The position numbers and the translations under genes are program-made. Positions 20,962 to 50,721 of a DNA stretch of 64,000 nt are shown here, one piece after another. This DNA is from Candidatus Parcubacteria bacterium (GTDB taxonomy: Bacteria; Patescibacteriota; Patescibacteriia; CAIXNZ01). The notes beneath the pieces were generated by a model. That model did not search any database. It was not told the DNA's origin and saw only the letters and a list, made by a program, of their open reading frames with translations. Each line of letters starts with the position of its first letter. The stretch's first letter is position 1. The stretch is from NCBI GenBank assembly GCA_026395685.1, contig JAPLYG010000012.1:7039-71038 (forward strand). The letters run 5' to 3'.

Positions 20962-20962
20962 C

Positions 20963-21036: not shown

Positions 21037-21049
21037 TATCAATATAACT

Positions 21050-24264: not shown

Positions 24265-24318
24265 GCCATTACCGAGGAAATAGCTGAAATTGCCGGAGGT
24301 AAGGCCGCACTGGAATAA
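24265..24318 (+). repeat. Diverged duplicate of the last ~17 codons of atpG including the stop. It is separated from the original by a 76-bp palindrome-containing insert.
   Basis: GCCATTACCGAGGAAATAGCTGAAATTGCCGGAGGTAAGGCCGCACTGGAATAA versus GCGATCACCAAGGAAATAGCGGAAATTGCCGGAGGCAAGGCCGCACTCGAATAA at 24131-24184. Confidence 0.7.
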
Positions 24319-24366
24319 TTTAAAATTCAAAATGCAAAGTGCAATGTTACAAAGCAAAATGAATAA

Positions 24367-25779
<1,413 letters not shown>

Positions 25780-25828
25780 ATTTTTAATTTATAATTTTTA
25801 AACAATTTTTAATTTATAAATTTTAAAT

Positions 25829-34163: not shown

Positions 34164-34286
34164 TTGCAAACTGCTAATTTTTCGATATCTAGTCGTCCAC
34201 ATGCTGGGCGATTTTTTAATTACAGCAACTATTTTTTATGGTATAATATAAACAATAGTAATAATTAAATATTTAAATCCAAGTCT

Positions 34287-36752
34287 GTGATTTTTACCAA
34301 AATCAGCAATAGTAAGATTTGGCATATTTTTGGGGTTGGTATAATACTGATTAGTTTTATTTTTGGTCAGTTTTTTTATGCTTTAAATCTTTACGCCGCT
34401 ACCTTTGTAGAAATTTTTGAAGATACTGTTTACAAAGACGCTGCCAATACGACAGCTGACTGGGAATGGGATACTTCAAGCGCCCATTTAATAAACGGCG
34501 ATTGGCGCAAGGCAGACAATACTGACGATGAGGGTTCGTATGAAATAATTCAAACTGCAGTGATCGGACATTATAATGTTATTTCCGGACCTGATAATAA
34601 AGCGATAGTAATATATACGTCAAATAATATCCTTTATTCAATTAAATGGAATGATGCGGGAGAGTCTGTCTGTGGGGAAGGGATCACTGCATGCTGGACA
34701 AATATTGAGGGCACGGATATCTATCCGGATACACTTGGCACAATATCAGCTCTTAAATTGTCAGTAATTAAAAAATCTGACGGTTACCCAGCAGTGGCCA
34801 TAATTGCAAATGAAACACCGAAAAAATTATATTATGCTCAATATAGCCCGGGTGTCGGGTGGACAGCATCAGACGGTCAAACCCAAAGCTTTGAAATGAT
34901 TTCAGATGCCGCAGCAATTACAGAATATAAATCTTTTTCCTTTAAAGCAGATCAGTATGGCGAGCCCAGTATTGTGTGGTATGAAAAAACAGGGACAAGT
35001 CCGATTATAACAACTATTAAATATACCCGGCTGGATAATGGCGTCTGGAAACATGCTGATCGGACAACTTCTGGTAAGGAAACCATAGTTGTACGCAGTG
35101 GGACTGGATATACTGATTTTAATCCGGATTTTGATTATGTCGGCAGTAATATTTATTTTGCTGCCCAGATTATGAATATATCGTATAGCTCTTATGCCTG
35201 GAAATGGGATGGCGCAAATTGGGAAAATTTAGACGGGACTCATTTTGCTTCAGTGCCGGGAGGATTAGCAGATATCACTCTCTTACAAGCTACTTGTGCT
35301 AGGCCTAGTATTGCAATAAATTCATCAAATATTCCGTATGTAGCATGTACGACAGGTACATCCTCAATTAAAATTGCCCAAAGGCTAGATGGCGCCTGGA
35401 AATATCCTGACGGAATTACTGGCGGAGTTTTGTCTCTGGCCAATTTTACCTATAATATATTAATTGATATAGGCATTGATCGTGATGATAATCTGATGCT
35501 ATGGGAAGTTTCATATCCCACAACAACTACTGAAGCGGAAATATATTTTACCCAATGGAAAAGTGGCGCCTGGAAAAAATCCGACGGAGTTACAACCGGT
35601 TGGGAAGCGGCGAGTAATGTAACAAACGGCCAATTATTAAATGCCTATTATACAAATGATACTTCAACATTTGACCGGCCATATACGGTAGATGAAAATG
35701 GATATCCGATTTTTCTGTTTGTAAATAGCACCGGGACTCCCTCGCCTTATCCCGGATATGTTTCCCGTTATACAGGCAATGATATTAAGGGAGCTGATAA
35801 AACTTCAAATGATCAGGATACTGTTTTTCCTGATAGTAATTCGCAGATTTGGTATCCGGTAATATTTTTTGATTCTGAAACAAAAAATATTTTAGTACTG
35901 GGACAGAATATATCCCAAACCTTGCCTTTTTCAATGTTTAATAATAATGTTTACGATAATACTAATCAGGATTTAGTATCTTCAACAATTGCTACAGCTC
36001 ATAATAATTCAACAATTACCTCGGCCAAATTAACTGTCAGCGAAACAGAGCCTAGCAATACTGCTATTACTTATTATTTGAGTGCCGATGCTGGCAGCCA
36101 TTGGGAGGCAGTTACTCCCGGTGTCAGTCACGATTTTACCAATACTGGCACGGATTTACGCTGGAAAGCAAACTTGACTTCAAATAGCCAGGCAGCGACA
36201 CCCTCTCTTGATTATTTGTATATTGATGTGGACGGTAAAACAGCGGAAACTTCAGGCGATATCACCATCTCAGCCACTGTTGATCCGGAAATGTCTTTTA
36301 ACTTATCTGCCCAGACGTGTGATTTGGAATCTTTTTCCAGTACTGCCATAAAAACATGCAATTATTCCATAACAGTAAATACTAATGCAACCGGAGGTTA
36401 TGTTGCTTATCTTCGGTCTGTTGATGGTTTCAAAAGCGGTTCGAATGAATTAACGCCAGTTAGTGACGGTTTTGTGACTGTTGGGTCACAGGAGTATGGA
36501 GTTGCCACCAGCGATGCTGATTATGCTTCTTTGCAGATAAATAAACAGGTAACTGATTGTACTGCTTTAGATGACACCACCAGTCCGGTCAATGCTACTA
36601 GCCTTACTGCCAGCGATCAGTCATTTGCTAAAGAAGTTTTAGCGGTAGCTGATGAAGAAATAACTGTCTGCCACATAGCTTCGATTTCCGGCTCAACCCC
36701 AGCTGGCGTTTATTCTCAGATAGTCGTTATTACTCTTGTCAGTAATTATTAG
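34287..36752 (+). CDS. Large secreted/anchored surface protein (821 aa) carrying the cluster-specific C-terminal domain
   Basis: N-terminal signal/anchor. C-terminal ~170 aa is homologous to four downstream paralogs: VDPEMSFNL...C...CNY...NTNATGGYVAYLR...EYGVATS...CHIASISGSTPAGVYSQIVVITLVSNY. Confidence 0.6.
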   Translation: MIFTKISNSKIWHIFGVGIILISFIFGQFFYALNLYAATFVEIFEDTVYKDAANTTADWEWDTSSAHLINGDWRKADNTDDEGSYEIIQTAVIGHYNVISGPDNKAIVIYTSNNILYSIKWNDAGESVCGEGITACWTNIEGTDIYPDTLGTISALKLSVIKKSDGYPAVAIIANETPKKLYYAQYSPGVGWTASDGQTQSFEMISDAAAITEYKSFSFKADQYGEPSIVWYEKTGTSPIITTIKYTRLDNGVWKHADRTTSGKETIVVRSGTGYTDFNPDFDYVGSNIYFAAQIMNISYSSYAWKWDGANWENLDGTHFASVPGGLADITLLQATCARPSIAINSSNIPYVACTTGTSSIKIAQRLDGAWKYPDGITGGVLSLANFTYNILIDIGIDRDDNLMLWEVSYPTTTTEAEIYFTQWKSGAWKKSDGVTTGWEAASNVTNGQLLNAYYTNDTSTFDRPYTVDENGYPIFLFVNSTGTPSPYPGYVSRYTGNDIKGADKTSNDQDTVFPDSNSQIWYPVIFFDSETKNILVLGQNISQTLPFSMFNNNVYDNTNQDLVSSTIATAHNNSTITSAKLTVSETEPSNTAITYYLSADAGSHWEAVTPGVSHDFTNTGTDLRWKANLTSNSQAATPSLDYLYIDVDGKTAETSGDITISATVDPEMSFNLSAQTCDLESFSSTAIKTCNYSITVNTNATGGYVAYLRSVDGFKSGSNELTPVSDGFVTVGSQEYGVATSDADYASLQINKQVTDCTALDDTTSPVNATSLTASDQSFAKEVLAVADEEITVCHIASISGSTPAGVYSQIVVITLVSNY

Positions 36753-36801
36753 AAGATTAAGAAAAAAATATAGATAATTATATCTAAAACGAATACGAAA
36801 A

Positions 36802-38148
36802 ATGAATAGGTGCCTTAAAAAAAATAAATTTTTTCTGAATATTTTAATCCTGATGGTTTTATTTTTATTGGGCAATTGTTATATTGTCAGAGCTGCTAGC
36901 TTGTTTAGTTTAAGCGATAGAGTCACCAGACATGCGCCCTTGACGCCTTCTGACCACGCGATTACTTTTACTACGCCAAGCGGTTTGGGCGAAGCAGGAG
37001 ATTATATCAGAATCAGTTTTGACGGCGGTTTTGATTTAAGCTCAATAATTTTTTCCGATATTAGTTTGTCTCACGGCCCAATTTCAGGCTTGGAAATTAC
37101 TGAAACAGTATCTGCTGCGCCTTTAGCCACTAACTGGGGATTGACCATTTCCGGCAACCATCTTGATTTAATCCATCCTACTAATTCAGCTAATGGTGAT
37201 ATTGCGCCCAATGATATTATATATATTAAAGTCGGCGGGACTCATAAGATAATTAATCCGGCAACTATCGGCTCTAAAGTTATTTCTTTAGTAATTTATA
37301 ACAGTTCCAATATAATAATTGACAGCGGACGTCTGGCAATACCTGTTACCCAGGATCAGGTAGGTGTTGGCGGCGCACCATTTGGAACTTTACCCATACC
37401 CGTGACTTTGAATTTTCCTTATAGTGTCACCACAAATTCCCTGGATCTTGATTGGACTGAATATGTAGAATTATTGATTCCAAATCCGCAATTTGACCGA
37501 TATGAATTATATATGGGTACCAGCCCCGGAGTCACAAATTTAAACGGGATATTACTGCCCCCAGATCCTCCAAGCGATGCCTATGACATTACCAAAACGA
37601 TTTTTTCCATTGATGGCTTAGCGCCTAACCGCACTTATTATTTTGTAGTCTATGTTTATAATGACCTTGGCTATTATGCTGCTTCAAATGAAGTTTATGC
37701 TACTACGCAAAGTGGCGGTATAATTTGGCCGTCTTTGCCCGCAGCTCCTACTATAAATTCCAGAATTTGCCCTATTTTTTTGCCAAATACCGCAATTGAC
37801 GGCACTAAACCGGCAGGGACTGCGATTTATGTAAACGGCAGTACTCAGAATATAAATTACCCCACTGATTTATTATGGAATAAGCTGGTAAATCTGGGCT
37901 TGGGTACAAATTTATTTTTGATATATGCACAGGACAATTATGGGCAAAACAGCAGTATGCTGACTGCGACTGTAAATCGCTGCGAAGTAGGTGATACAAA
38001 TTGCAATTTATTGGTTGATGATTTTGATCTGGCAGGCTTGGCCGGACATTGGGAGACCAACTGGTGTTATGCTGATTTCAATGAAGACGGTATTGTTGAT
38101 GATTTTGATCTGTCAGGTCTAGCTGCACATTGGGATTCGGTGTATTGA
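36802..38148 (+). CDS. Secreted protein with a dockerin-like C-terminal pair of Ca-binding repeats
   Basis: Signal peptide. C-terminal CEVGDTNCNLLVDDFDLAGLAGHW...DFNEDGIVDDFDLSGLAAHW matches the dockerin DxNxDGxVDxxDL duplicated pattern. Confidence 0.5.
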   Translation: MNRCLKKNKFFLNILILMVLFLLGNCYIVRAASLFSLSDRVTRHAPLTPSDHAITFTTPSGLGEAGDYIRISFDGGFDLSSIIFSDISLSHGPISGLEITETVSAAPLATNWGLTISGNHLDLIHPTNSANGDIAPNDIIYIKVGGTHKIINPATIGSKVISLVIYNSSNIIIDSGRLAIPVTQDQVGVGGAPFGTLPIPVTLNFPYSVTTNSLDLDWTEYVELLIPNPQFDRYELYMGTSPGVTNLNGILLPPDPPSDAYDITKTIFSIDGLAPNRTYYFVVYVYNDLGYYAASNEVYATTQSGGIIWPSLPAAPTINSRICPIFLPNTAIDGTKPAGTAIYVNGSTQNINYPTDLLWNKLVNLGLGTNLFLIYAQDNYGQNSSMLTATVNRCEVGDTNCNLLVDDFDLAGLAGHWETNWCYADFNEDGIVDDFDLSGLAAHWDSVY

Positions 38149-38264
38149 GAAAATAGGTAATAGGAAATAAGTAATAAGGTAAAGGAAAAATATTAAGTAA
38201 TAATTCATTGGTAATCTGTAGTATGGATATGATTATTTAATAAATTTTTTCCAATCCGTATTTC

Positions 38265-40583
38265 TTGCTTCTTACTTCTTATTTCAAATTTAATAATATG
38301 AACAAGCTATCCAAAATTATTTTATTCTTATTATTGCTGGGGTTATTTTTGCCTTATTTGCCGGCTCAGGCAGCAGGAAATGCGATTTTTCGCCTGACCA
38401 GCGCCAAAACTGACTATTATGTCGGTGAAAATATTTATATTGATGTTATGGTTGAACCAAATGGCGAAAGCATTAATACCGTAAGATTAATTTCGGATTT
38501 TACAGGCGCCGATGTTTTAAATGTCTCTGATTTTAATTTGGGGACTGCATGGCCGACTCAAAGTCCCGGCAGGGAATTAAATAATACGACTGATCATATA
38601 AATGTCGGCGGATTTATTTTAGTTGAATCAATAAATGTAAATTCAAAATTTGGCACTTTAATTTTTAAGGCAAATCAGATTGGTACGTCCACAATTTCTG
38701 TGGCAACAGGTTCGCATTTGATTTCTCCGGATCAGATTGAAAGGTTAAATATCTTTGCTAGTCAAAATATCACCATCAATGTAATCGGTAATCCGCCTTT
38801 GCCGCCACCCCCACCACCGGCAAATCATGCTCCTGTTTTTTCTGCCATTGCTAATAAACAGATTAATTTGGGAGAAACTATTACTTTTCCAGTTTCAGCC
38901 ACTGATTCAGACAACGATTTGATAAATTTAAGCTGGACTATACCTAGTAGCGCAAATTTTAATAATGTAATCAATGATTCTGCTGCAGTCAGCGGTAATT
39001 TTTCCTGGACGCCTGCTTCGCAGGGTATATATACGGTAACTTTTACAGCTACTGACAATAATGTTGATGCCAAAACTTCAGTTTTGACTGTAGGTATTGG
39101 CGTCAATGTGCCTGCTCCTGCTCAAAATCATGCCCCTGTTTTCGAGCCAATCTTGGAAAAAACAGTCAATGCCGGTGAAATTTTAACTTTTACTGTTTCA
39201 GCTACTGATCCTGATGGCGATAATGTGACTTTGAGTTTGGAGCCATTAGAAACTGCCTCTTTAACTCCCATAACCTCGGGTATAACTTCTTCTTCACGTT
39301 TTAGCTGGACGCCTAAAAATTTTGGAATATATTATTTAGTTTTTAAAGCCAAGGATGATAATGCCGCTAGCCAGGAAAGCACGCAAACAGTGCGTATTAC
39401 AGTTTTTGGCGGTCAATGTCCTCCCTGTAGCAGCGGTGGCGGCGGTGGAGGCGCAACCTGTCCCATTCCCCAGTGTGAAAAACAGGATTTTAAAAAGCCT
39501 ATAAATAAGACTTTACCGGTTATTACTTCACCAACGCATCCCAGCCAGGAAATTTGGTATAGTAAAAATACGCCGCAATTTGTCTGGGAAGTTGCCGAAG
39601 AAAACTTAGGTTATGTTTTTAATATAGATCAAAATCCGCTTTCTGATCCGGCTATCGGCTATTTCTTTTCTCAGGATAAGGTTTTTTCTTTCAGCCAGGT
39701 AGCTGACGGCTTTTGGTATTTTCATTTAAAAGTAAAATACTCAGACGGCTATGGTCCGACTGCTCATTATCAGGTAAAAATTGACACCACGGCTCCGGAA
39801 TTTTTTCTGCCCAGTATAGAAGGCACTAAGCTATATTTTTCCGCTATAGATAAGCATTCTGGTCTAGCTTATTTTGAAATGAAGACTGATGACGGCAAAT
39901 GGCAAAAAATTCAGAGTCCATACACATTTACCAGCGAGGACCAAAATGCCAAGGTTATGACTTTGCGGGCTGTGGATAACAGCGGCAATGCGATTGAAGC
40001 CAGAATTGATTTGCCTAAAATGGAATTAATCAAGGAAGAACCCAAAAAGTATATTTTAAATCAGCCGAAATTTATAATAGAGCCGCTTATAATTGATAAA
40101 ATTGACTTTCCGGTGATTCGTGGCCGAGCCATGCCGAGCGCCAAAGTATTTTTATTCATTTCAACTGAGCCCCAAACAATAATTTATACCCTGGCTGATT
40201 ATCAGGGTAATTGGGTCGCTTATGCGGATAAAGAATTAGCGCCGGCGAAATATAGCATTTACGGCATTGCTAACTTAAATTTTACTGACTCTCCTCCTTC
40301 GGAAAAAGTTTATTTCAGCATCACTAAAGAACAGCAAAAGTTTATTTTTCACTGGTCATCTACGTGGCCTTGGTGGATATTAATGCTTTTGGTGATAATT
40401 TCCGGCGCCGTTGCCATTTACTTGTTATTAAAAGTAAAAAAATATTATTTAACAAAAAGAATTTTTCGCAAGGCATATAAAATAGGCAAGCATGACGGTA
40501 AAATTATAGAAAAAATAAATGAAATCAAACAACAAAAAAATCAGCTCAAAAAAATTGCTGCCAAGAGTAAAAACAGGCGTTAA
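38265..40583 (+). CDS. Membrane-anchored surface protein with two cadherin-like (He_PIG-type) repeats
   Basis: Signal peptide. Poly-Pro linker (PLPPPPPPA), then NHAPVF...TFPVSATDSDND and NHAPVFEP...TFTVSATDPDGDNVTLS repeats. A Cys/Gly-rich segment (CPPCSSGGGGGGATCPIPQCE) follows. C-terminal TM plus Lys-rich tail. Confidence 0.55.
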   Translation: MLLTSYFKFNNMNKLSKIILFLLLLGLFLPYLPAQAAGNAIFRLTSAKTDYYVGENIYIDVMVEPNGESINTVRLISDFTGADVLNVSDFNLGTAWPTQSPGRELNNTTDHINVGGFILVESINVNSKFGTLIFKANQIGTSTISVATGSHLISPDQIERLNIFASQNITINVIGNPPLPPPPPPANHAPVFSAIANKQINLGETITFPVSATDSDNDLINLSWTIPSSANFNNVINDSAAVSGNFSWTPASQGIYTVTFTATDNNVDAKTSVLTVGIGVNVPAPAQNHAPVFEPILEKTVNAGEILTFTVSATDPDGDNVTLSLEPLETASLTPITSGITSSSRFSWTPKNFGIYYLVFKAKDDNAASQESTQTVRITVFGGQCPPCSSGGGGGGATCPIPQCEKQDFKKPINKTLPVITSPTHPSQEIWYSKNTPQFVWEVAEENLGYVFNIDQNPLSDPAIGYFFSQDKVFSFSQVADGFWYFHLKVKYSDGYGPTAHYQVKIDTTAPEFFLPSIEGTKLYFSAIDKHSGLAYFEMKTDDGKWQKIQSPYTFTSEDQNAKVMTLRAVDNSGNAIEARIDLPKMELIKEEPKKYILNQPKFIIEPLIIDKIDFPVIRGRAMPSAKVFLFISTEPQTIIYTLADYQGNWVAYADKELAPAKYSIYGIANLNFTDSPPSEKVYFSITKEQQKFIFHWSSTWPWWILMLLVIISGAVAIYLLLKVKKYYLTKRIFRKAYKIGKHDGKIIEKINEIKQQKNQLKKIAAKSKNRR

Positions 40584-41268
40584 AATTTTGGTTTTAGCAA
40601 TTGTATTAACATTGTCTAAGGAAACCATTGCCGGCATGGCCAGTGATAATTATCGGATTTGGGTGGATACTTTTGATGCTGCAGGCGGAGCAACCAATAC
40701 TAGTGGTTTTAAGATCAATTCAAATTTATCTGATTTTAATGCTACGCAAAGTCAAAGCTCTAATTTTAGCCAAAAAATAGCTTTTTCTGGCATTTTGGAT
40801 GAGCCTACAGTCGGCTTTAACGTACAATCCGTAACCTTGGATTTTGGTCTTCTGTCAACCAATTCAACAAAATATGCTGTCCATACTTTTTCTGCGTTTA
40901 CCAATGCCCAAGAAGGCTATACAATTAAAATTTATGGCGATCCTTTGAAATCAAATGATTATATAATTCAGGAAATAGGCACTACAGCTTCGGCACCGAC
41001 TTTAGGCACTGAGCAATTTGGTATTAATTTAATGTTAAACAGCACTCCTTCAGCAGGCGCAAATCCTACCGGCGGCATTGGCCAGGCAGCAGTCAATTAC
41101 AACCAGGCTAATAAGTTTGCTTATCATGCCGGTGAAACTATTGCTTATGCTGAAAGCTATTCTTATCAAACCGATTATACCGTCACTGCAATTGTAAATA
41201 TTGCCGATGACACGCCGGCGGGAGCTTATACTACAATCTTGACTTATGAATTTATTCCGGTCTTTTGA
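40519..41268 (+). CDS. Small secreted paralog carrying the cluster C-terminal domain
   Basis: Ends DDTPAGAYTTILTYEFIPVF and carries the shared domain. Start is uncertain (overlaps the upstream gene; an alternative ATG lies at 40638). Confidence 0.45.
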   Translation: MKSNNKKISSKKLLPRVKTGVKILVLAIVLTLSKETIAGMASDNYRIWVDTFDAAGGATNTSGFKINSNLSDFNATQSQSSNFSQKIAFSGILDEPTVGFNVQSVTLDFGLLSTNSTKYAVHTFSAFTNAQEGYTIKIYGDPLKSNDYIIQEIGTTASAPTLGTEQFGINLMLNSTPSAGANPTGGIGQAAVNYNQANKFAYHAGETIAYAESYSYQTDYTVTAIVNIADDTPAGAYTTILTYEFIPVF

Positions 41269-41474
41269 GCCTAATTATCAGGCAAATCAATTTTGAAAAG
41301 TTTTGAGATTTGTTCGGGGTAAAGTTATCCACAGTTTTTATGTGCTAAGATAAAGTAATTTTTTAAATTATGGTATAATATAAACAGATATAGAAAGATT
41401 GGGGACAACTAGAATTTTTTTAAATATAAATCAATAATATATATTGATAATTAAAATTAATCTTAATACAAATT

Positions 41475-42578
41475 ATGAACAAATTCTTGAAAGTTGTAGG
41501 TATCTGGTCAATAGTTGCCATTGTATTTTCAATGAGCTTATTGGCTCCCATGCAAACTCAAGCTGCCGGCCAGCTGGGGTTGATTTCTGTTTTGCTAAAA
41601 GCAACAGACAGTGAAACAGGCAATAATGTATATGCAGTTAGCAGCCAGGTGCCATATACTTTTGTTAAATTTACGCCTATTGCCGATTTAGAGATTGATG
41701 ACGGTATTAAAGTTACTTTTACAAGCTTTACTGATTCGGTAGAAACTGCTGATGTGACTGTAACTCAAAATGCTGAAAGTTTAACTAAGACTGTTGTTGC
41801 TTCAGGGGGAAGTGGTGTCATACAAATTGAAATGGACTCGGCGACTACTGGCTCAAAAGTTAGTCCTGTTACTGTAAAAATCACCGGCGATGCAACAGAT
41901 TTAGTTACTCCGGGAAGTGCAAATACTTACACTGTTAACATTGAGGTTTATGATTTAGGAGCGGATGCTCATTTCGGTGGCGGTGATGATGTCTTACAGG
42001 ATAGCGGTGCGGCCGGTGTTATTATAGGCACTGCTGCTGGTTATCAAATCGGTATTACAGGTACAGTTGATCCGACTTTATCTATGGCTTTGACTCAGAT
42101 CGGCAATGATACTCCTACTTCAACCTGCGCTTTGGGAACTCTTACCAAAGATTTTGTAGAAACCTGCGGTTATGATGCTAAGATTTCTACCAATGCTACC
42201 GGCGGCTATACAGCGTATATCAGGGCAGGGGGCGGATTAATGAGCGGTGCTAATGAAATTGACAAAGTAGCTGAAGGAGATGATATTGATTTCGGAGTCG
42301 AAGAATATGGAATATCATCAAGTGATACAGGTACTGATATAATCAATAATAACTCGGGAACAAGTTGCACTCTTTTAGATCACACTACTACGCCAGCGAT
42401 GCCCGCAGATCCATTGACTAATGGCGGTGGTTTATATGTAGATAGATCATTTGCTTCTTCTACAGGCACGGCTTCTAATGAAAGGACAACAGTCTGTCAT
42501 GCAGCTGGTATTACAGCTGTTACTCCGGCAGGCAATTATACCCAGACTGTAACTATCACTATTGTCGGCAATTTTTAA
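41475..42578 (+). CDS. Secreted paralog with the cluster C-terminal domain
   Basis: VDPTLSMAL...C...CGY...STNATGGYTAYIR...EYGISSS...CHAAGITAVTPAGNYTQTVTITIVGNF. Confidence 0.6.
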   Translation: MNKFLKVVGIWSIVAIVFSMSLLAPMQTQAAGQLGLISVLLKATDSETGNNVYAVSSQVPYTFVKFTPIADLEIDDGIKVTFTSFTDSVETADVTVTQNAESLTKTVVASGGSGVIQIEMDSATTGSKVSPVTVKITGDATDLVTPGSANTYTVNIEVYDLGADAHFGGGDDVLQDSGAAGVIIGTAAGYQIGITGTVDPTLSMALTQIGNDTPTSTCALGTLTKDFVETCGYDAKISTNATGGYTAYIRAGGGLMSGANEIDKVAEGDDIDFGVEEYGISSSDTGTDIINNNSGTSCTLLDHTTTPAMPADPLTNGGGLYVDRSFASSTGTASNERTTVCHAAGITAVTPAGNYTQTVTITIVGNF

Positions 42579-42620
42579 AAATAAATAATTAATATAAAAA
42601 TAATAATTAAAAGGGGTAAT

Positions 42621-43619
42621 ATGAAAACAAAAAAATTTTTATTGCTGGCTGTAGTAATGCTGATTTGCGGATTAGCAATTCCTTTTGCCAGTAATGCCGT
42701 TACTGTTTCACCTCCAATTTTGGAGATTGAAGCAGCTAAAGGCCAGGTAATAACACAGTCAATTAAAGTTCGCAATGAAAGTTCTGATTTGGTTACTTAT
42801 TATTTGACATCTCAAAAATTTATTGCCGCCGGTGAAGGCGGAGCGCCGCAATTTGTGGAAGGAAAAGTGGAAGATGTTGACCTGGCATCCTGGATCAAGT
42901 TCCAGTATGACAGTATTAGTATCCCAGGCGGTCAGACAGTAGAAGTGCCTTTTACTATTGTTGTTCCTGAATTTGCCGGTCCGGGTGGTCATTATGCAGC
43001 TATATTTTTAAGCACTTTTCCGCCAGATGCAAAAGCTAATACTTCTCAAGTATCTATTGCCAGCAGAATCGGCACTTTGGTGCTCGTCAAAATTGCAGGC
43101 GAAGTGAAAGAATCAGCTGAATTATCAGAGTTTACAGCTGCTAAATCATATTCTTCCTTACCGGTAACTTTTGGAATCAGAGTAAAAAACATAGGTAATG
43201 TTCACGTGAAGCCAGTAGGATCAATCGTTATTAAGAATATGTTCGGTTCAGTCGCCGGCAATGTGATAGTCAATGAAGAAAGCGGAAACGTTTTGCCGGA
43301 TTCAATCAGAAAGTATGAAGCAAGCTGGGTGAAAAATCCAAATGCAGTCGGGGCTACGACATTCTGGGGAAAATATCGGGAAGAAAAGGAAAATTATGCT
43401 TTTGGCAAATATACCGCTGATTTAATGCTTTCTTATGGCACTGCAGGTAAACCTTTGCAGGCATCTGTAAGTTTCTTGGTCATTCCTTGGCATGTAATCT
43501 TAGTCAATTTGGTACTGATCATCATCGTTGTTATTATAATTTACTTATTAGTCAAGAGATATAATGCCTGGTTGATTACTAAATACGGCAAAAAACAAGA
43601 AAAGAAAGCTAAGAAATAA
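42621..43619 (+). CDS. CscA/DUF916-like surface protein (signal peptide, Ig-like beta-sandwich, C-terminal TM anchor with a basic tail)
   Basis: VTVSPPILEIEAAKGQVITQSIKVRNESSDLVTYYL (chaperone/DUF916-like N-domain pattern). C-terminal VILVNLVLIIIVVIIIYLLVKRYNAWLITKYGKKQEKKAKK. Confidence 0.45.
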   Translation: MKTKKFLLLAVVMLICGLAIPFASNAVTVSPPILEIEAAKGQVITQSIKVRNESSDLVTYYLTSQKFIAAGEGGAPQFVEGKVEDVDLASWIKFQYDSISIPGGQTVEVPFTIVVPEFAGPGGHYAAIFLSTFPPDAKANTSQVSIASRIGTLVLVKIAGEVKESAELSEFTAAKSYSSLPVTFGIRVKNIGNVHVKPVGSIVIKNMFGSVAGNVIVNEESGNVLPDSIRKYEASWVKNPNAVGATTFWGKYREEKENYAFGKYTADLMLSYGTAGKPLQASVSFLVIPWHVILVNLVLIIIVVIIIYLLVKRYNAWLITKYGKKQEKKAKK

Positions 43620-43734
43620 AGTGCAATTTGAAATTTTATTGTAATTGAATAAGAACATTTACAAAGAGGGACTGTGTGGAATCATGGTCCCTCTTTAAGT
43701 AATAAGCTATTAGTTTCATTATAAAAGTAAAGCA

Positions 43735-44145
43735 ATGAAAAAAATAATTAACATTATAATAGTGGCTGTTTTTTTGAATTTTTTTATGCTTTCTTTTGGC
43801 TATGGTCAGCAAAATGGGGTTGGTGTCGTGGGCATCGTGCCGGAAACTGATTTAAATAAAAATGTAAGACAGCTGGATGTGCAAACACCAGAAAATAGAC
43901 CAATTTTTAAGGAAAATAAATATTTATATTTTTTTGAAAAAGCACTGGGTTTAAGCCAGGAGACTGTAACAGATTCAGGAATGAATATAGAAACAAGGCA
44001 GACTGCCTATGACCAAACAGCAAGCAAATTGCTGCTCTGGGGCTTGCTTTTGATTATGGCGGTTCTGATTTGGATTATATTGAGCATTATAGATAGATTT
44101 ATTTTCAAACAGCAAAAGCATTATAAACATGCTCATGGATTGTAA
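43735..44145 (+). CDS. Small membrane protein (signal peptide + C-terminal TM)
   Basis: Hydrophobic termini. Lies within the surface cluster. Confidence 0.4.
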   Translation: MKKIINIIIVAVFLNFFMLSFGYGQQNGVGVVGIVPETDLNKNVRQLDVQTPENRPIFKENKYLYFFEKALGLSQETVTDSGMNIETRQTAYDQTASKLLLWGLLLIMAVLIWIILSIIDRFIFKQQKHYKHAHGL

Positions 44146-44190
44146 AATTTAGCGAAGTTAATAAGCGGAATAAGACAGGCAAGATAAAAT

Positions 44191-45225
44191 ATGAAAAAAA
44201 AACATCAACATAATATAATCATTCTCGTATGTATTTTATTGTCAGCTTTTCTTTTCCATCAGGCAAATGCAGGTCTGGTCAGTAATTTTAGTGACCAGTT
44301 AAGCAGGCTGGCAATCTCCACTAGCTCAAATCATACGCTTAATTTTACCATTTCATCTGATTTTTCCGCGGGAAAAACTCTGGAGCTGTATTTTGAATCC
44401 GGTTTTGATTTGAGTGATATTGATTATACTGACATAGATTTTAAGGATGACGGTGAAAATAAGAATTTGGGTGAAACTCCCGGAAACGGCGTCGGCAGTA
44501 ATATTGGTATTTCTGTTTCGGGCCAGACTATTATTTTTATTCAAAATGACACTGATTCTATTTCTGCGTCATCAGTCATAACCATTTTAATCGGCTTAAA
44601 TGCCAATCATCAGTTGCTAGGCACCATGCAGATGATTAATCCTGATCTGGGGGGAATATATAAAATCAGTTTAGCTGGCAATTTCGGCGATATGGGGACA
44701 ATCTCAGTACAGATTTTAAGTACTGACGGCGTCGGATTAAATGCTTCTATTGAGCCGGCAATGTCATTTAGCATCAGGAATTCTGAAGATTCGGAAAATT
44801 TTAGCGGTTGCAGTTTTAATAATCCATCAATCAGTTCTGTCAGTGAATGCAGCTTCAGGTTGGCAGCAGAAACTAATGTTTCTTCTGGTTTTCAGGTATG
44901 GTTACGTTCCGACGGAGATTTGCGCAATATTAACGGTACAATCGCCAAAGTTATTGAAGACCAGGAAATTACTGCCGGCAATGAGGCATTTGGACTGGCT
45001 TTACAATCCGGAACAGGTATAAATGAAGCAGGCGATTTTACTGACGATGAAACCCCAGTTTCATCCACAGATTCACTTTTAATTTATACAAATTCAGTGT
45101 ATAATTATATACAGGGGGAGTTATCCACAACCTCTATAATTACACTTAAATTAGCGATTTCACATACTACCAAGGCAGGTCATTACAGTCAAGCGTTTAT
45201 TTTTACATTATTGCCAAATTATTAA
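44191..45225 (+). CDS. Secreted paralog with the cluster C-terminal domain (divergent)
   Basis: IEPAMSFSIR...C...C...SSGFQVWLRSDG...EAFGLALQ...TKAGHYSQAFIFTLLPNY. Confidence 0.5.
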   Translation: MKKKHQHNIIILVCILLSAFLFHQANAGLVSNFSDQLSRLAISTSSNHTLNFTISSDFSAGKTLELYFESGFDLSDIDYTDIDFKDDGENKNLGETPGNGVGSNIGISVSGQTIIFIQNDTDSISASSVITILIGLNANHQLLGTMQMINPDLGGIYKISLAGNFGDMGTISVQILSTDGVGLNASIEPAMSFSIRNSEDSENFSGCSFNNPSISSVSECSFRLAAETNVSSGFQVWLRSDGDLRNINGTIAKVIEDQEITAGNEAFGLALQSGTGINEAGDFTDDETPVSSTDSLLIYTNSVYNYIQGELSTTSIITLKLAISHTTKAGHYSQAFIFTLLPNY

Positions 45226-45263
45226 ATAATTAATTCAGATATTTTATTCATTTTTTTTATTTT

Positions 45264-47060
45264 ATGATAAAAAATAAACAAAAATTTTTGGCGCTGTTCG
45301 TAGTTTTAGTTTTGCTAAGTTCATTTTTGGGTTCTGTCCCAAAGCAGGCACAAGCTGCCAGTCTCATTTCTCACTGGGAGTTTAATGGCAGTACGGCAGA
45401 TTCAGCAGGTACAAATAACGGGACATTGGAGGGCAGTGCTAGTGTAGCAAATAATTATTTAGATGTTGTTAGTTCAACTGCTGATTATGTTTCAGTCCCT
45501 GATGATGACAGCTTGAGTTTTGTATCCGGAGGAGTTGACCAGGCATTTTCAGTTTCCACTTGGGCAAAGCTGGATCCGGCAGGCAGCTTGTCTTTTCTCA
45601 AGAAAGGAAATATTGATGATTCAAATTTAGAATATCAATTTTCTTATAATTATTTGGGTAATGTGGAGCTTCTACTTTATGATGATAGTCATACTCCTGG
45701 TAATTATATAAGTATTCAATATGCTTTGGGGAATGATTACACAATGGACTACTTGAGTGAACACTGGATGCTTTTAACAGCTACTTATGACGGAGGAGGA
45801 GCAAGTGCCGTACTTAATTTATATGTCAATGGTTCTGTGGTAGATGCATTTAGCAGCGGAAGTAATTATGATAAAATGGCAAATGGAAATGGAATTCTGA
45901 AAATTGGTTCTGCGTCAGATGGAAATATTGATGATTTGAGAATTTATTCCGGAGAATTAACTGCTAATGAGGTGAGCACGCTTTTTTCCAGCCAGGCAAG
46001 TGACTTTCGCAGCACTTCAATTGCGACGCAGTTTTTGGATGCAGATGGCAACAATGTAGTAGCAGTTAGTACACCTGTAAACACTGCAAAAGTAATATTT
46101 TCTCCTCAAAATGAATTAAATAATAGTGATGGAGTTTTAATTAATTTCCAGTCAGATTTTGCTTTAGGCACTATTGATGACAGTTCAGTTGCGATAAGTC
46201 AGATGCATACAACAACTGATCTTACAGTTGAAACAGACGGTATAGACAAAAGCGGGCAAAATGTCAGGATAATTCTTGATGATACGGCCGGCGCTGGTGA
46301 TCGCAAGTCAGAACAGGTTACAGTTACGATTACTGACGCCATAACTACGCCGAGTGCTGGTACGTACATCATTATAGCTGAAACTTATGATTTGGGCAGT
46401 GATAATGCCTGGGGTGGGGTAGGAGGAGCGGCTGATACTTTAGAAGGTACAGCTTCAGCAGCAGCTTTTTTTGGTGATTATATAGTCAATATTAGCGGTT
46501 CAGTTGATCCGACATTAACCCTGACTTTGGCCAATTGGACTGATGCTAATGGTGATGTTGCTACCGCAAATACCTGTAATTTAAGTCCAGCTGCAAGATC
46601 TTTAACAAGCGCTGCGATTAATTTGTGCGGATATACTGCTAGCATATCTACAAATGCAACTTCCGGTTATATTGCCTATATTCGTGATAGCGGAGATTTT
46701 TCTTCCGGCAGTGATGTTTTGGCAGATGCGACAGGAACAGCTTCAATGAGCGCAAATCCAGCGGATGCTATTTATGGTGTGGCAACTGATTTTGCAGGTG
46801 GCGGCGTAGCCATTCAGTTTATAAATGATGTAGACGGTGATACTTTTAGAAATACGGGTGATCTTTATGCTATTATAACGAATGGTAATCGCTCCGGAGT
46901 CAATGCTAGTGGTATTACCGAAACTGATCAAAGCTTTGCCAAAAGCACTGAACCTGCGGATGATACTATTGTTTTAGGCCATATGGCAGCCATTGCCGGT
47001 GATACTCCGGCTGGAACATATAGTACGACTACTGTGATTACAGCCGTGGGAAATTTTTAA
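45264..47060 (+). CDS. Secreted protein: N-terminal LamG-like (Laminin_G_3) domain plus the cluster C-terminal domain
   Basis: LamG hallmark IDDLRIYSGELTANEVSTLF. C-terminal VDPTLTLTL...C...CGY...STNATSGYIAYIR...TPAGTYSTTTVITAVGNF. Confidence 0.6.
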   Translation: MIKNKQKFLALFVVLVLLSSFLGSVPKQAQAASLISHWEFNGSTADSAGTNNGTLEGSASVANNYLDVVSSTADYVSVPDDDSLSFVSGGVDQAFSVSTWAKLDPAGSLSFLKKGNIDDSNLEYQFSYNYLGNVELLLYDDSHTPGNYISIQYALGNDYTMDYLSEHWMLLTATYDGGGASAVLNLYVNGSVVDAFSSGSNYDKMANGNGILKIGSASDGNIDDLRIYSGELTANEVSTLFSSQASDFRSTSIATQFLDADGNNVVAVSTPVNTAKVIFSPQNELNNSDGVLINFQSDFALGTIDDSSVAISQMHTTTDLTVETDGIDKSGQNVRIILDDTAGAGDRKSEQVTVTITDAITTPSAGTYIIIAETYDLGSDNAWGGVGGAADTLEGTASAAAFFGDYIVNISGSVDPTLTLTLANWTDANGDVATANTCNLSPAARSLTSAAINLCGYTASISTNATSGYIAYIRDSGDFSSGSDVLADATGTASMSANPADAIYGVATDFAGGGVAIQFINDVDGDTFRNTGDLYAIITNGNRSGVNASGITETDQSFAKSTEPADDTIVLGHMAAIAGDTPAGTYSTTTVITAVGNF

Positions 47061-47208
47061 CTATATTGCTTACATAATGATAAAAAGACTCTGTTAAATG
47101 CAGGGTCTTTTAGGTTAGTAAAAAATAATAAAAGTTATTCACAATATAAGGCAAAATCAGGTCAAAATCGCTACAAAAATATTTAAAAAAGTGGTATAAT
47201 AAAATTAG

Positions 47209-50200
47209 ATGAAAAAGGCTAATTCTAAGACAATTATAGTAAAAGTTTCGTTTTGGCAGAAAATCAAGGGAGTATTAGTCCAGATGAAAAATCCTTGGGC
47301 TATTTTTGGTATTATTTTGGCTATTGGGGTGATTACTGCTGTTATAATTATATTTTGGTATTCTAATTATAAAGATTATATCATTGCAGGCGATGGTATT
47401 CGCGATACCATGACTTATCAGGGTAAATTAGTCAATGCTGATGGCGTTCCGCCTCCGGATGGTGATTATAGCCTGCAGTTTAAAATTTATGATTCATTAA
47501 CCAACGGTAATTTACTTTGGACTGAAATTTGGGATGGGGATGTTCACGTTGAACAGCCAGGTGCTTTGAAGGTTTCTGTCAGCGATGGAGTTTTTACCGT
47601 GGAATTAAATTCATTATGCGAAAGCTGGGCAGGTGATTGCGCTGAAACAGTTGATTATGGCGGGGGTAAGGTAATTACAGGTGTGACTTTTGATCAGGAC
47701 AGCTATTATTTACAGGTTGAACTTGATTATGCTGATGACGGTACTTTTGAGGAAATATTTTCACCGCGTAAAAGGTTTACTGCCACGCCTTATTCAATGA
47801 ACGCTGATAAACTTGACGGTAAAGATTCTACTGATTTTGTGGCCAAATCAGGCGGCGCAAATGCGCTTATGACCGGCAGTTTAACCACCACCAATGTTAT
47901 TGACAGCTCTTTGGTGACATATCAGCAGTTTGGTGAAACGGAGATTATTAGTGATACAGCCTATACCCATGATAGTGGCCCGAATAATTTGTCTGTAAAA
48001 TTGGTGAGTTCATATATTAGCGATGGCTACTTAGGTTTTAGAGGCAATCCTGAATATGCCCAAATAGATGATAATGATTTGCTGAGTTTTGGCACTGGCA
48101 GTGCTGATACGCCCTTTACTATTTCCGCCTGGGTTTTGGGCGCGGATATGAAAGATTTCATTATTGCCAGCAAGGGCATATATAACACCAGCGGTGAATA
48201 CAAATTTTTTATTGATGATAATTATAAATTGAGCGCACAGCTTTTTGACGAGAGTGTTGCCAATGCATATATCGGCCGAATGTATAATGCATCTTCCTTG
48301 GAAGGATTGGCAAATAGCTGGAACCATTTTGTCTTTACATATAATGGCAATGGCCAATCATCAGGCATAAAATTATATATTAACGGTGATCGTGTGGATG
48401 ATGAAAATAAACAAAATGGATCATATGTAGCCATGGAAACTTTGTCAGCTAATTTGATTATAGGACGTTATGATACTACATATTCTTTGGGTAAGATAGA
48501 TGATTATATGATTTATAGCCGGGAATTATCATTTGATGAAATTTTAAATTTATATAATGGGGTCCAGAATAAAGTTAATAAAAATAATTATAAGCTTAGT
48601 ACCTATTATCTTTCTTTGGATGGTTTAGCCAATGGTGTTTTTGATTCTGCAAATTTATATTATGATCCCAATTTCCAGCAGATTGTTTTTGATAGAAAAA
48701 TCTTTGTGCCGGATAATAAATCAGCAGCTGAAAATGAAAAAAATGACCGCGACTATACGCATTTTACAGATGCCAATAGAATATTAGCCTATGATTTTAG
48801 CATGCCAAATTCAGGCATATTGAATTTGGATGATATAACCGGCAATACTGACGGTAATAATGGGGGAGATACTACTTTTATCAATAATGGATTAGTGGGC
48901 TATGGCTATGCTTTGAATGCGGATGGAAGTTACATCAGCTTTAATGATCCCGGTATTAATACAACGACCGGTACTATAGAACTTTGGAGTAAATTAAATA
49001 ATATCTCCACTTCGGAAACAAATTATTTTGTTTACATGAGTGATACCGGCGGTGTTCAGCTGGCTTTTTGGAAACAGGATGCCGTCAATTTATATGTTAA
49101 GGTCGGTGATGCCACTGCAGTAGATACAACTTATGATTTTGTCGATAATAATTGGCATCATTTGGCTTTAACTTGGTCAGCAGGCGCTTATAAAGTATTT
49201 GTTGATGGTACGGCTGTTTATAATGCGGCTTATTCGACTTTAACGACCCCAACATCGTTATTTTTGGGTTATGGGAATATAGCCAGTACGTCATTAAATG
49301 GCAGTATGGACAGCGTGGCCATTTATAATGATGTCTTGACTGATGATGAAATTTTAAATCATGCTAAAAATGGCTTTTCAGGATTATATATTGATAATAC
49401 TTTAAACGACGGTGTAATCAGTACTAGTTTGGCAAACTTATTGGATAAATCATTCGGGGAAACTTTTGGCAATAAATTTGATCCATGTTATTTTCAATAT
49501 ACAGGACCCAAGAAATTATCTTTACCATTTTCTGAAGGTTATGGCTCTACAACTACCAGCGTTTCAAATAGTCAAGTAGCTACTCTTCATGGTTCTTCCT
49601 GGGTAAACAAAGGCTATAATGGCTCTGCTTTAAGTTTTGACGGGATAGATGATTATTTGGAAATGGAAGATAATTATGACTTAAATATTGATGTTTATGA
49701 TTTTGCCATTGAATTTTGGTTTAAAGGCAACGGCGTTTCAAATGCCGGCAAAAAAATAATTTCTAAGCGTTCGGGTGACACAGGATATGAGGTCTCTTTT
49801 GGCCCCGCAAAAGATAGCATAATATTTTTTCTTGGCGATGGCACTAATACTGTTACAGCGGTAGCTAATGGACCAAATAACATGTCTAGTGGGTCTTGGA
49901 ATCATGTCTTGATAAGTTTTGACCGCAGTGGCAATGCGGTAATGTATATCAATGCCTGGTCACAAGTAACAACTGATATTTCCTCATTAGACAGCTATAG
50001 CTTGAGCAATAGTGCTCCTTTATTCATCGGTAAAGATTCAACAGGAAATTATTTTAACGGAATATTGGATGGCGTAATTATTTATCATCTTTATGATGAT
50101 GGACAATCAGAAGCGCTTCCACAATTTAATATTTATGATTCTTACGCCCGTGTTTTTAATGCACCTGATATTCTGCTCCTTTTGGGAAGAAACTTGTCTA

Positions 50201-50721
50201 ATGCGACAGCACCGCTTGTCTCCATAAATCAATCCAAAATTGGGGATGCCGGAATTTTTGCCATGAATCATGAAGCTAATACAACTGGTTATCCGGTTGC
50301 TTTATGGAATGATAATTCCTATGATTCAGGTGGGAATAATATATACAATTTAATATATTTCGGCACTACCTCGATTAGTGGGGGCGGTAGTTCTTTAGAA
50401 TATGGCAATATAAAGTGGGACAGTACTAACAGCAGATTAGTCTTTAGCGACGGTATTCATCAGGCAAGCAGCAGCGATACAAATATTTTTGAAGGCATGA
50501 CCGCTATTGGTTCAACGACAACGCCCACCGAAATGCTGGAAGTAACTGGAAATATTACAGCCACAGGCACTATCCAAAGCGACCAGCCAAGCGTAATCAA
50601 AGTTAGCGGCGGCTCAACGCCCGGTTCTTCTTGCACGGTAGGGGATTTTACTTGGGATAATGATTATCTTTATATTTGTACAGCTACTGATACCTGGGAA
50701 ACGGCAGCAATTGCGCCTTGA
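47209..50721 (+). CDS. Giant (1170 aa) membrane-anchored protein with several LamG-like (concanavalin-type) domains
   Basis: N-terminal signal-anchor. Repeated LamG endings IDDYMIYSRELSFDEILNLY, MDSVAIYNDVLTDDEILNH and ILDGVIIYH. Confidence 0.6.
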   Translation: MKKANSKTIIVKVSFWQKIKGVLVQMKNPWAIFGIILAIGVITAVIIIFWYSNYKDYIIAGDGIRDTMTYQGKLVNADGVPPPDGDYSLQFKIYDSLTNGNLLWTEIWDGDVHVEQPGALKVSVSDGVFTVELNSLCESWAGDCAETVDYGGGKVITGVTFDQDSYYLQVELDYADDGTFEEIFSPRKRFTATPYSMNADKLDGKDSTDFVAKSGGANALMTGSLTTTNVIDSSLVTYQQFGETEIISDTAYTHDSGPNNLSVKLVSSYISDGYLGFRGNPEYAQIDDNDLLSFGTGSADTPFTISAWVLGADMKDFIIASKGIYNTSGEYKFFIDDNYKLSAQLFDESVANAYIGRMYNASSLEGLANSWNHFVFTYNGNGQSSGIKLYINGDRVDDENKQNGSYVAMETLSANLIIGRYDTTYSLGKIDDYMIYSRELSFDEILNLYNGVQNKVNKNNYKLSTYYLSLDGLANGVFDSANLYYDPNFQQIVFDRKIFVPDNKSAAENEKNDRDYTHFTDANRILAYDFSMPNSGILNLDDITGNTDGNNGGDTTFINNGLVGYGYALNADGSYISFNDPGINTTTGTIELWSKLNNISTSETNYFVYMSDTGGVQLAFWKQDAVNLYVKVGDATAVDTTYDFVDNNWHHLALTWSAGAYKVFVDGTAVYNAAYSTLTTPTSLFLGYGNIASTSLNGSMDSVAIYNDVLTDDEILNHAKNGFSGLYIDNTLNDGVISTSLANLLDKSFGETFGNKFDPCYFQYTGPKKLSLPFSEGYGSTTTSVSNSQVATLHGSSWVNKGYNGSALSFDGIDDYLEMEDNYDLNIDVYDFAIEFWFKGNGVSNAGKKIISKRSGDTGYEVSFGPAKDSIIFFLGDGTNTVTAVANGPNNMSSGSWNHVLISFDRSGNAVMYINAWSQVTTDISSLDSYSLSNSAPLFIGKDSTGNYFNGILDGVIIYHLYDDGQSEALPQFNIYDSYARVFNAPDILLLLGRNLSNATAPLVSINQSKIGDAGIFAMNHEANTTGYPVALWNDNSYDSGGNNIYNLIYFGTTSISGGGSSLEYGNIKWDSTNSRLVFSDGIHQASSSDTNIFEGMTAIGSTTTPTEMLEVTGNITATGTIQSDQPSVIKVSGGSTPGSSCTVGDFTWDNDYLYICTATDTWETAAIAP

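Follow-up and report, generated by a model that had tools for sequence, protein, structure and literature searches.

A probable Pam-type pilus and adhesin operon in a Parcubacteria bacterium, with a chaperone family homologous to WxLIP

Introduction

A large part of bacterial diversity belongs to the Candidate Phyla Radiation (CPR, or Patescibacteria), whose members live attached to other cells in ways that are still mostly obscure. Pam pili came to light only in 2026, when Troman et al. reported in a preprint that two filaments of one cultivated Saccharibacterium, Ca. Mycosynbacter amalyticus (Saccharimonadia), had been solved by cryo-electron microscopy (cryo-EM) (bioRxiv 10.64898/2026.03.03.709456). 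Here we analyse a 64,000-nucleotide (nt) stretch of DNA from a Candidatus Parcubacteria bacterium (contig JAPLYG010000012.1), the whole of which is called the window and supplies all coordinates below. Our subject is a 16.5-kb block of ten open reading frames that lie head to tail on its + strand (34287-50721), each of which is named by its start position; their products are currently annotated as 'hypothetical' or 'LamG domain-containing'. We conclude that this block is probably a Pam-type donor-strand-exchange pilus and adhesin operon, a divergent variant, rich in adhesins, of the Pam pilus that was recently described from ultra-small bacteria of the CPR.

According to Troman et al., the Pam pilus polymerises by donor-strand exchange, in which each subunit's C-terminal domain takes up the linker of the subunit that follows. 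In the pilins PamA and PamB, a nine-strand N-terminal sandwich is joined by a single linker strand to an open C-terminal immunoglobulin (Ig)-like domain, and the donated linker and the C-terminal binding site are among their most conserved regions. PamT is a tip subunit that consists of the domain only and has no linker, PamC and PamD are PapD/FimC-like chaperones that have retained a C-terminal membrane helix, and PamR is an FnIII terminator with a membrane helix; the system has no usher. ATP synthase genes are a conserved and unexplained neighbour of pam operons, with which a tail fibre-like protein is also co-located. Pam pili have been reported from CPR bacteria only, mainly from Saccharimonadia and Microgenomatia.

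The Csc/WxL clusters of Lactobacillales, with which a sequence-only reading of the block had compared it, encode CscA (that is, WxLIP), the WxL proteins CscB and CscC, and CscD, a small LPXTG protein. In Enterococcus, Listeria and Lactobacillus, WxL loci are important for colonising the gut and for virulence. In published AlphaFold models a strand of WxLIP completes the WxL sandwich, and a WxLIP-WxL complex has been solved (PDB 9i25).

Results

A Pam pilin domain shared by five secreted proteins

The ten genes had been described from the sequence as consecutive, on the same strand and all encoding signal-peptide or anchor proteins, and this description holds: every open reading frame was recovered at its coordinates, and an N-terminal hydrophobic segment was found in 10 of 10 proteins (Kyte-Doolittle scans). 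Hydropathy also indicated C-terminal membrane helices in 38265-40583, 42621-43619 and 43735-44145 and an N-terminal anchor in 47209-50721. By these predictions, all ten genes encode secreted or membrane-anchored proteins. The intergenic gaps are short throughout, and a single pair of genes overlaps (38265-40583 and 40519-41268, by 65 nt).

Five of the proteins, 34287, 40519, 41475, 44191 and 45264, have in common a C-terminal domain of ~165 amino acids (aa), as the earlier reading had noticed. By blastp, 34287 aligned with 41475 at 40% identity over 177 aa (expectation value, E, 1e-30) and with 45264 at 37% identity (E 2e-22), and aa 262-598 of 45264 aligned with aa 49-367 of 41475 at 33% identity (E 2e-30); 44191 matched the other carriers at ~24% identity (E 1e-9), and 40519 matched them weakly (E 0.01). 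Profile alignment with hhalign joined the 40519 family to the 41475 family (probability 96.7%, E 4e-10, 151 columns). In addition, hidden Markov models (HMMs) built from either of these families matched all five proteins, including the C-terminal domain of 45264 at E 2e-32.

The identity of the domain was indicated by the NCBIfam models of the Pam system. NF058581 (CPR_Pam_pilin_C, Pam pilus system pilin subunit) scored 128.7 bits on 40519 against a cut-off of 55, and gave significant matches below the cut-off on 34287 (E 4.5e-9), 41475 (E 8e-11) and 44191 (E 1e-6). NF058579 (CPR_pilus_PamT) matched 40519 with E 2e-45 over profile positions 8-241 of 241, its 155 bits lying below the equivalog cut-off of 240. 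The Pam pilin and PamT models thus match four of the five proteins, and the fifth, 45264, is tied to them by its blastp match to 41475. On these matches, we identify the shared domain as the CPR Pam pilin C-terminal domain. Because it matches both the pilin and the PamT models, the block is better labelled a 'Pam-type pilus operon' than a csc/WxL-type complex. The sequence-only reading had offered as its alternative a new attachment apparatus of an episymbiotic reduced-genome bacterium; this comes close to the Pam label given by NCBIfam.

The pilin family is large. A profile search of 1.84 billion cluster representatives with the 41475 family returned 3472 clusters at E<=1e-3, the members of which are mostly ~350 aa long and include many long proteins that carry the C-terminal domain alone at their end; NF058581 matches 61 of 83 sampled relatives. 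For 40519, 53 homologs were found. Searches of PDB sequences with the pilin, PamT-like and chaperone proteins gave no significant match.

Two-domain pilins and a conserved linker

The gene 41475-42578 (+ strand) encodes a shaft pilin of 367 aa with a signal peptide, an N-terminal sandwich, a linker and the C-terminal domain. Its AlphaFold model, computed from an 83-sequence alignment, has a predicted local distance difference test score (pLDDT) of 90.2; in it, a signal helix is followed by nine strands (aa 35-185), from which an extended linker leads to a C-terminal sandwich (aa 202-367). The linker, a putative donor strand, spans aa ~190-203 (extended at aa 191-201 in the model), and the C-terminal domain contains the cysteine pairs 218/231 and 298/341, whose pattern recurs in the domain of 34287 (678/691 and 758/795). 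As modelled, 41475 reproduces the published layout of PamA and PamB, including the paired cysteines.

When 12-residue windows of the 83-sequence pilin alignment are ranked by conservation, the linker ('IGITGTVDPTLS') comes first and the C-terminal strand ('TPAGNYTQTVTI') second. The linker is encoded in the window as 'YQIGITGTVDPTLS' at 42042-42083 (+ strand), a region that is also conserved at the DNA level with 46472-46529. This pattern of conservation in the aligned sequences agrees with that of PamA and PamB.

The other carriers of the domain vary in what precedes it. A second two-domain pilin of 344 aa is encoded at 44191-45225 (+ strand), its assignment resting on NF058581, blastp and the HMM match; it has a cysteine pair at 207/220 and is a candidate adaptor or base-proximal subunit. 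The 821-aa product of 34287-36752 (+ strand) is an adhesin-pilin fusion in which a signal/anchor segment and a repeat region of ~640 aa are followed by the linker 'GDITISATVDPE' and the Pam pilin C-terminal domain (aa 659-821). Its N-terminal 640 aa contain six 'GxWxxxDG' repeats ~55-60 aa apart, a propeller-like arrangement, and the gene carries three copies of a 46-nt DNA repeat (35023, 35374 and 35548); this region matched no Pfam or NCBIfam family. In the 598-aa product of 45264-47060 (+ strand), a signal peptide and one LamG domain (aa 72-238; Laminin_G_3 in Pfam, E 9e-13) precede the pilin N-terminal domain, the linker 'YIVNISGSVDPT' and the pilin C-terminal domain, which makes it a lectin-bearing pilin. 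The PamT-like protein encoded at 40519-41268 (+ strand, 249 aa) consists of little beyond the C-terminal domain and is a candidate tip or initiator subunit.

A membrane-tethered chaperone homologous to WxLIP

The gene 42621-43619 (+ strand, 332 aa) encodes a signal peptide, two beta-sandwiches (aa 27-131 and 149-287), a C-terminal helix and a basic tail, the features of a membrane-tethered PapD-like or WxLIP-like chaperone. Its AlphaFold model (pLDDT 86.7) consists of two Ig-like beta-sandwich domains and a long C-terminal membrane helix, and superposes on FimC, PapD, SafB, CsuC and CfaA over 145-181 residues. The modelled protein matches the description of PamC and PamD; the likeness is one of fold and description, and NCBIfam has no model for the Saccharibacteria chaperones. 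All 391 detected homologs of 42621 are from CPR bacteria.

The sequence-only reading had seen in this gene the architecture of a CscA/DUF916 protein, and on this point it was right. Pfam PF06030 (WxLIP_PGBD, formerly DUF916) matches 22 of 48 relatives of 42621, three of them above the gathering cut-off, and among 177,635 PDB sequences EfmWxLIP1 was the top match of the family profile, but with an E of 0.07. As a reference set, we used the WxLIPs of seven real WxL loci on plasmids of Lactococcus, Enterococcus, Lactiplantibacillus, Latilactobacillus and Vagococcus, which have the order DUF916, DUF3324 and membrane helix. With these the 42621 family aligned over both domains (hhalign probability 97.7%, E 2.3e-12, 215 columns), so that 42621 shares the WxLIP (CscA) architecture of DUF916, DUF3324 and membrane helix; in Pfam, the chaperone-like protein had no DUF3324 match. 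From these profile alignments, the Pam-type chaperone family is homologous to WxLIP/CscA. Because the chaperone is a clear relative of WxLIP, a shared origin of the Pam and WxL surface systems is suggested. The Pam preprint makes no mention of WxL, DUF916 or DUF3324, and in the literature searched we found no paper linking the Pam chaperone with WxLIP.

Relation of the pilin domain to WxL domains

The earlier comparison of the shared domain with WxL domains was not supported. Pfam WxL (PF13731) matched none of the ten proteins and none of 126 relatives, even with thresholds relaxed to E<=1 to 10, and the at least two WxL-domain proteins of a Csc/WxL cluster were thus not found at the locus by this model. 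Alignment of the Pam C-terminal profiles with 12 WxL domains gave hhalign probabilities of 0.1-7%, and the tryptophans of both W-x-L motifs are replaced in the Pam domain (GY..., ...LTY/VTI). Of the csc/WxL-like complex suggested from the sequence, the CscA-like gene and the parallel in the cast of the cluster are supported, and a WxL nature of the shared domain is not.

Several weaker signals point the other way. The weak alignments between Pam and WxL domains are colinear and fall at both W-x-L positions, 'TNAxxGYxxxV' being aligned with 'DxRGxxxGWxLxV' and 'AGxYTxxLTYxF' with 'YxTTLTWxL'. The global hhalign P-value of the Pam domain against WxL was 0.003, compared with 0.2 for a reversed control. 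A WxL HMM scored 212 Pam C-terminal domains above their reversed copies (top scores 16.8 and 9.5 bits), with seven real sequences at E<0.01; the significance of this rank test is overstated, as the sequences are related to each other. Homology between the Pam pilin domain and WxL is thus only hinted at by the sequences; we lean towards it because the partner protein, the chaperone, is homologous to WxLIP.

Conservation and distribution of the locus

Conservation in related genomes, which the sequence-only reading had named as a check, was found: the same gene order occurs in two of them (loci L001 and L011), and this recurrence shows that the ten genes were not brought together by chance. Identity to the L001 orthologs is 47-72% for the machinery genes (36802, 70%; 38265, 55-64%; 40519, 65%; 42621, 72%; 43735, 47%; 44191, 62%), whereas the main pilin 41475 is only 32% identical to its ortholog (L001 8801-9949). 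Next to the 62-72% of the flanking machinery genes, this low identity suggests strong diversifying selection on the exposed subunit; an exposed fibre would be expected to show just such a fast-diverging pilin beside slowly diverging machinery. Adhesin-bearing subunits have been exchanged between the genomes, with Kelch propellers in L001 where the window has LamG. L001 also contains, between the chaperone and the small anchor gene, a 123-aa gene (11200-11571) with a '23S rRNA intervening sequence protein' domain (PF05635), which is absent from the window.

A single-protein scan of GTDB species genomes yielded 20 loci from Parcubacteria, Paceibacterota, Saccharibacteria, Levyibacteriota and others. 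Together with L001 and L002 these make 22 distinct loci, L003 being left out as a duplicate of the L002 locus cut at a contig end. In HMM searches, a pilin-domain gene adjoins the chaperone gene in 21 of the 22, across several CPR classes, the exception being L028. The window, from a Candidatus Parcubacteria bacterium, agrees with the restriction of the Pam system to CPR bacteria.

The Saccharibacteria-type order is PamT-like gene, chaperone, pilin of ~480 aa, chaperone. In one Saccharibacteria locus (L013, 476-5864) there are four chaperone paralogs, the first of which is separated by a pilin-domain gene from the other three, which lie in tandem. In L002 (1-7771), a protein of 9711 aa, encoded directly upstream of a pilin and two chaperone paralogs, ends in the Pam pilin C-terminal domain (HMM E 3e-40) and is apparently, from this match, a giant adhesin on a pilin chassis. 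Seven loci with a Pam-like chaperone and pilin come from GTDB-representative metagenome-assembled genomes (MAGs) titled 'uncultured Gammaproteobacteria' or 'Pseudomonadales' (L017, L018, L020, L022, L023, L025 and L027). Their GC content is 0.39-0.45, and a MAG titled 'Patescibacteria group bacterium' encodes a relative of the L018 chaperone at >=90% identity. The seven titles qualify the restriction of the system to CPR bacteria; at least one of them looks wrong, and mislabelling is probable.

Anchoring candidates and accessory adhesins

Three genes of the block encode proteins that lack the domain and are candidates for ending or anchoring a fibre. The 448-aa product of 36802-38148 (+ strand) would be a donor only: it has a signal peptide, a pilin-type N-terminal domain (aa 7-164, 30% identical to aa 2-162 of 44191 by blastp, E 1e-10), the linker-like 'QDQVGVGGA', an fn3 domain (Pfam E 1e-5) and a duplicated dockerin-like C terminus, and no pilin C-terminal (acceptor) domain was found in it. 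Its Dockerin_1 match is below threshold (E 0.06; E 0.013 in the ortholog), and the dockerin call, made already from the sequence, is supported by a duplicated 41-nt dockerin segment. By its domains, 36802 is a candidate terminator or adaptor that would dock onto the cohesin of the next gene.

That gene, 38265-40583 (+ strand), encodes a membrane-anchored scaffold of 772 aa with a signal peptide, a cohesin-like domain, two Big_9/PKD/He_PIG Ig domains, an OmpL47-type barrel, a C-terminal helix (aa ~699-726) and a basic tail. Pfam confirmed Big_9, PKD and He_PIG, in keeping with the membrane-anchored He_PIG protein of the earlier description, and the N terminus aligned with the cohesin-transmembrane proteins of L002, L012 and L024 (hhalign probability 95.2%, E 2.5e-8). 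The TTG listed as its start is probably too early, because the ATG that precedes the signal peptide (MNKLSK...) lies 11 codons downstream.

The third gene, 43735-44145 (+ strand), encodes a protein of only 136 aa with a signal peptide, the mature N terminus 'QQNGVGVVGIVPETD', a spacer and a membrane helix (aa ~94-126). The 'GVGVVGIVPETD' that follows the signal peptide resembles the pilin linker motif and is kept in the orthologs at the same position ('NVSIGGIVPVTD' in L001, 'MNVSGFVPVTD' in L011); from this motif and the helix, 43735 is a candidate anchor.

In L002 and L012, a dockerin protein directly follows the chaperone and is itself followed by a cohesin-transmembrane protein, and the mature N termini of the dockerin proteins are donor-strand-like ('QVTVTATVPE' in L002, 'NITITATV' in L012). 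Judged by their motifs, 43735, 36802 and 38265 could take over the role of PamR, and in Parcubacteria and Paceibacteria a plug of dockerin and cohesin may replace PamR in holding the base of the fibre.

The last gene, 47209-50721 (+ strand), encodes an N-terminally anchored, fibre-like adhesin of 1170 aa with a membrane helix (aa 27-54), a 'mosaic adhesive trimer' fibre N-domain (aa 66-214) and three LamG domains. Pfam confirmed all three as Laminin_G_3, which bears out the multi-LamG protein of the sequence-only reading, and no pilin domain was found in 47209. A fibre N-domain of this type recurs beside chaperones in the Saccharibacteria loci L013, L026 and L028, and we infer that 47209 probably corresponds to the tail fibre-like protein of the Pam paper. 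Pfam scans of the regions left unassigned (the N-terminal parts of 34287, 36802 and 38265, the whole of 43735 and the ends of 47209) gave no match.

Operon context

A terminator-like hairpin at 34191-34213 (+ strand) closes the upstream PcrA/UvrD-like helicase gene. After it, at 34219-34247 (+ strand), lies the region's best promoter-like site, with a TG-extended -10, which is the likely start of the operon; hairpin and promoter are matches to a consensus only, which does not show that they function. An F-type ATP synthase operon (subunits a, b, alpha, gamma and beta) lies at 18981-26266, 8 kb upstream of the cluster. This operon upstream and the fibre-like protein at the 3' end fit the neighbourhood reported for pam operons.

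Between rlmN and the helicase gene there is an open reading frame of 351 aa (29675-30730), with no NCBIfam match at E<=1e-5. We also considered a mobile element or prophage and rejected it: the composition of the block is the same as that of its flanks, and the inverted repeats are only weak, including a 76%-complementary 29-nt pair near the block ends.

Discussion

The locus resembles the described Pam system in most of its parts. The shared domain matches NF058581 and NF058579, the pilins have two domains with nine strands, a conserved linker and paired cysteines, a candidate for PamT consists of little more than the domain, the PapD-like chaperone carries a C-terminal helix, no usher-like domain was found in the ten proteins (Pfam, NCBIfam), the host belongs to the CPR, and an ATP synthase and a fibre-like protein lie nearby. 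It differs in coming from a Parcubacteria MAG, whereas the paper deals mainly with Saccharimonadia and Microgenomatia, and in having five pilin-domain genes, which include fusions to LamG and to a propeller-like region. In place of PamR there are a dockerin/cohesin pair and the 136-aa protein with a strand and a membrane helix, and most of the proteins score below the NCBIfam cut-offs.

Chaperone-usher pili offer a second comparison. They share with this locus Ig-like subunits with an incomplete fold, a logic of tip, shaft and terminator, and adhesins in which a lectin is joined to a pilin domain, as in FimH and PapG. In contrast, there is here no outer membrane and no usher, and the chaperone is membrane-tethered. 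In addition, the donor strand of Pam-type pilins is an internal linker between two domains and not an N-terminal extension, and the Pam fibre is linear and not coiled, according to Troman et al.

We propose that the ten genes build a fibre that would be usher-less and chaperone-assisted and would be assembled on the cytoplasmic membrane of a cell without an outer membrane. After export of all subunits by Sec, the 42621 chaperone would cap the open C-terminal domain of each subunit with a beta-strand of its own. The PamT-like 40519 would start the fibre at its distal end, and the pilins 41475 and 44191 would be added singly, the linker strand (IxIxGTVDP) of each inserting into the C-terminal domain of the preceding subunit. 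Binding modules on the pilin chassis would be brought in by 34287 (the propeller-like 640 aa) and 45264 (the LamG lectin), and the fibre would display several adhesins, presumably for host-cell glycans. A donor without an acceptor domain, for which 43735 and 36802 are candidates, would stop growth. As motifs and synteny suggest, a membrane helix would hold the base directly, or else the dockerin of 36802 would plug into the cohesin of the membrane-anchored 38265. The multi-LamG fibre protein 47209 would be a separate, co-regulated adhesin. What the domains are, how the chaperone folds and what it is related to, how the pilins are built, and that the linker and the gene order are conserved are results described above; polymerisation, the order of the subunits and the two anchoring routes are inferred.

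Several observations weigh against a Pam-type pilus. The filament, the complex and donor-strand insertion are deduced here from genes and single-protein models. A curated NCBIfam cut-off is passed by 40519 alone, and this for the domain model NF058581 and not for the PamT equivalog. Moreover, 40519 carries a linker-like motif ('KIAFSGILDEP') upstream of the domain, whereas the published PamT has no linker, so that its role at the tip is less clear-cut. The locus has one chaperone, compared with two (PamC and PamD) in the described operon. No protein with the PamR architecture of an N-terminal strand, two FnIII domains and a membrane helix was found among the ten, the features of PamR being split between 43735 (strand and membrane helix), 36802 (strand, fn3 and dockerin) and 38265 (cohesin and membrane helix).

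The strongest competitor, which we nevertheless regard as unlikely, is a complex of the Csc/WxL type that does not polymerise, in which each domain protein would be held singly on the WxLIP-like anchor by strand complementation and the adhesins would stay near the surface, as proposed for Lactobacillales. The homology of the chaperone over both of its domains fits such a complex, as does the cast of the cluster, which in both systems comprises a small domain-only protein, large adhesins with the C-terminal domain, a membrane-tethered two-Ig protein and a small anchored protein (PMC10599100). However, the Pam pilin models recognise the shared domain and Pfam WxL does not, and two-domain pilins with a strongly conserved linker, which have no described WxL counterpart, fit the polymer proven by cryo-EM. 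At least five subunit genes per chaperone would suit a catalytic chaperone better than a 1:1 holder. A C-terminal LPXTG motif, the mark of CscD, was found in 0 of 10 proteins, the small 43735 being anchored by a membrane helix; and the WxL system is regarded as a wall-bound complex and not a fibre. The same lack of LPXTG motifs led us to reject a sortase pilus, as did the lack of a sortase among the ten genes (the window beyond them was not scanned for sortase).

It is still less probable that the block is a loose set of independent adhesins that share a C-terminal membrane- or wall-association domain and have no dedicated assembly pathway. The many long family members with the C-terminal domain alone at their end would agree with this, and so would N-terminal modules that are unrelated to one another; against it, however, stand the chaperone-fold gene that adjoins domain genes in nearly all of the distinct loci, the conserved gene order, and the fact that the best-conserved element is the linker upstream of the domain. 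A cellulosome-like complex that binds and processes polysaccharide, with LamG as carbohydrate-binding modules, is very improbable. The dockerin-like C terminus of 36802, the cohesin-like N terminus of 38265 and the LamG domains could be read in this way, but a single dockerin and a single cohesin are present, and such a complex would not account for the pilin and chaperone genes. None of the ten proteins matched a catalytic domain of a glycoside hydrolase or lyase, and it is for this lack of enzymes that we rejected a cellulosome.

A Pam-type operon in this genome would extend the Pam machinery to Parcubacteria, which the paper does not list among the classes of highest prevalence. It would represent a modular platform, in which interchangeable lectin-like heads (LamG and propeller here, Kelch in relatives) are mounted on a conserved pilin chassis, and would supply concrete candidates for host recognition in uncultivated lineages.

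The homology of the Pam chaperone to WxLIP/CscA, which is not in the Pam paper, points to a new and testable reading of WxL loci. Pam and WxL have at least the chaperone in common, and they may represent one ancient assembly pathway of bacteria that have no outer membrane. The wider proposal, to which we give slightly less than an even chance, is that Pam pili in CPR bacteria and Csc/WxL clusters in Firmicutes are two branches of one such system. The ancestral system may have combined a membrane-tethered PapD-like chaperone with subunits whose incomplete C-terminal sandwich was completed by a donated strand. The window is a bridging case, in which homology of the chaperones is established by profile alignment and homology of the subunits is hinted at. 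If the common origin is true, the WxL domain would be a pilin domain that has degenerated, WxLIP would act as a chaperone and not as a peptidoglycan- or host-binding protein, and some WxL loci might form short fibres.

WxL loci on plasmids of lactic acid bacteria (L005-L010) show a repeated order of small WxL protein, WxLIP, large adhesin with a C-terminal WxL domain, and small LPXTG protein. Several of the large adhesins in these loci are labelled only as BspA, MucBP or Ig-like, and their C termini align with WxL domains.

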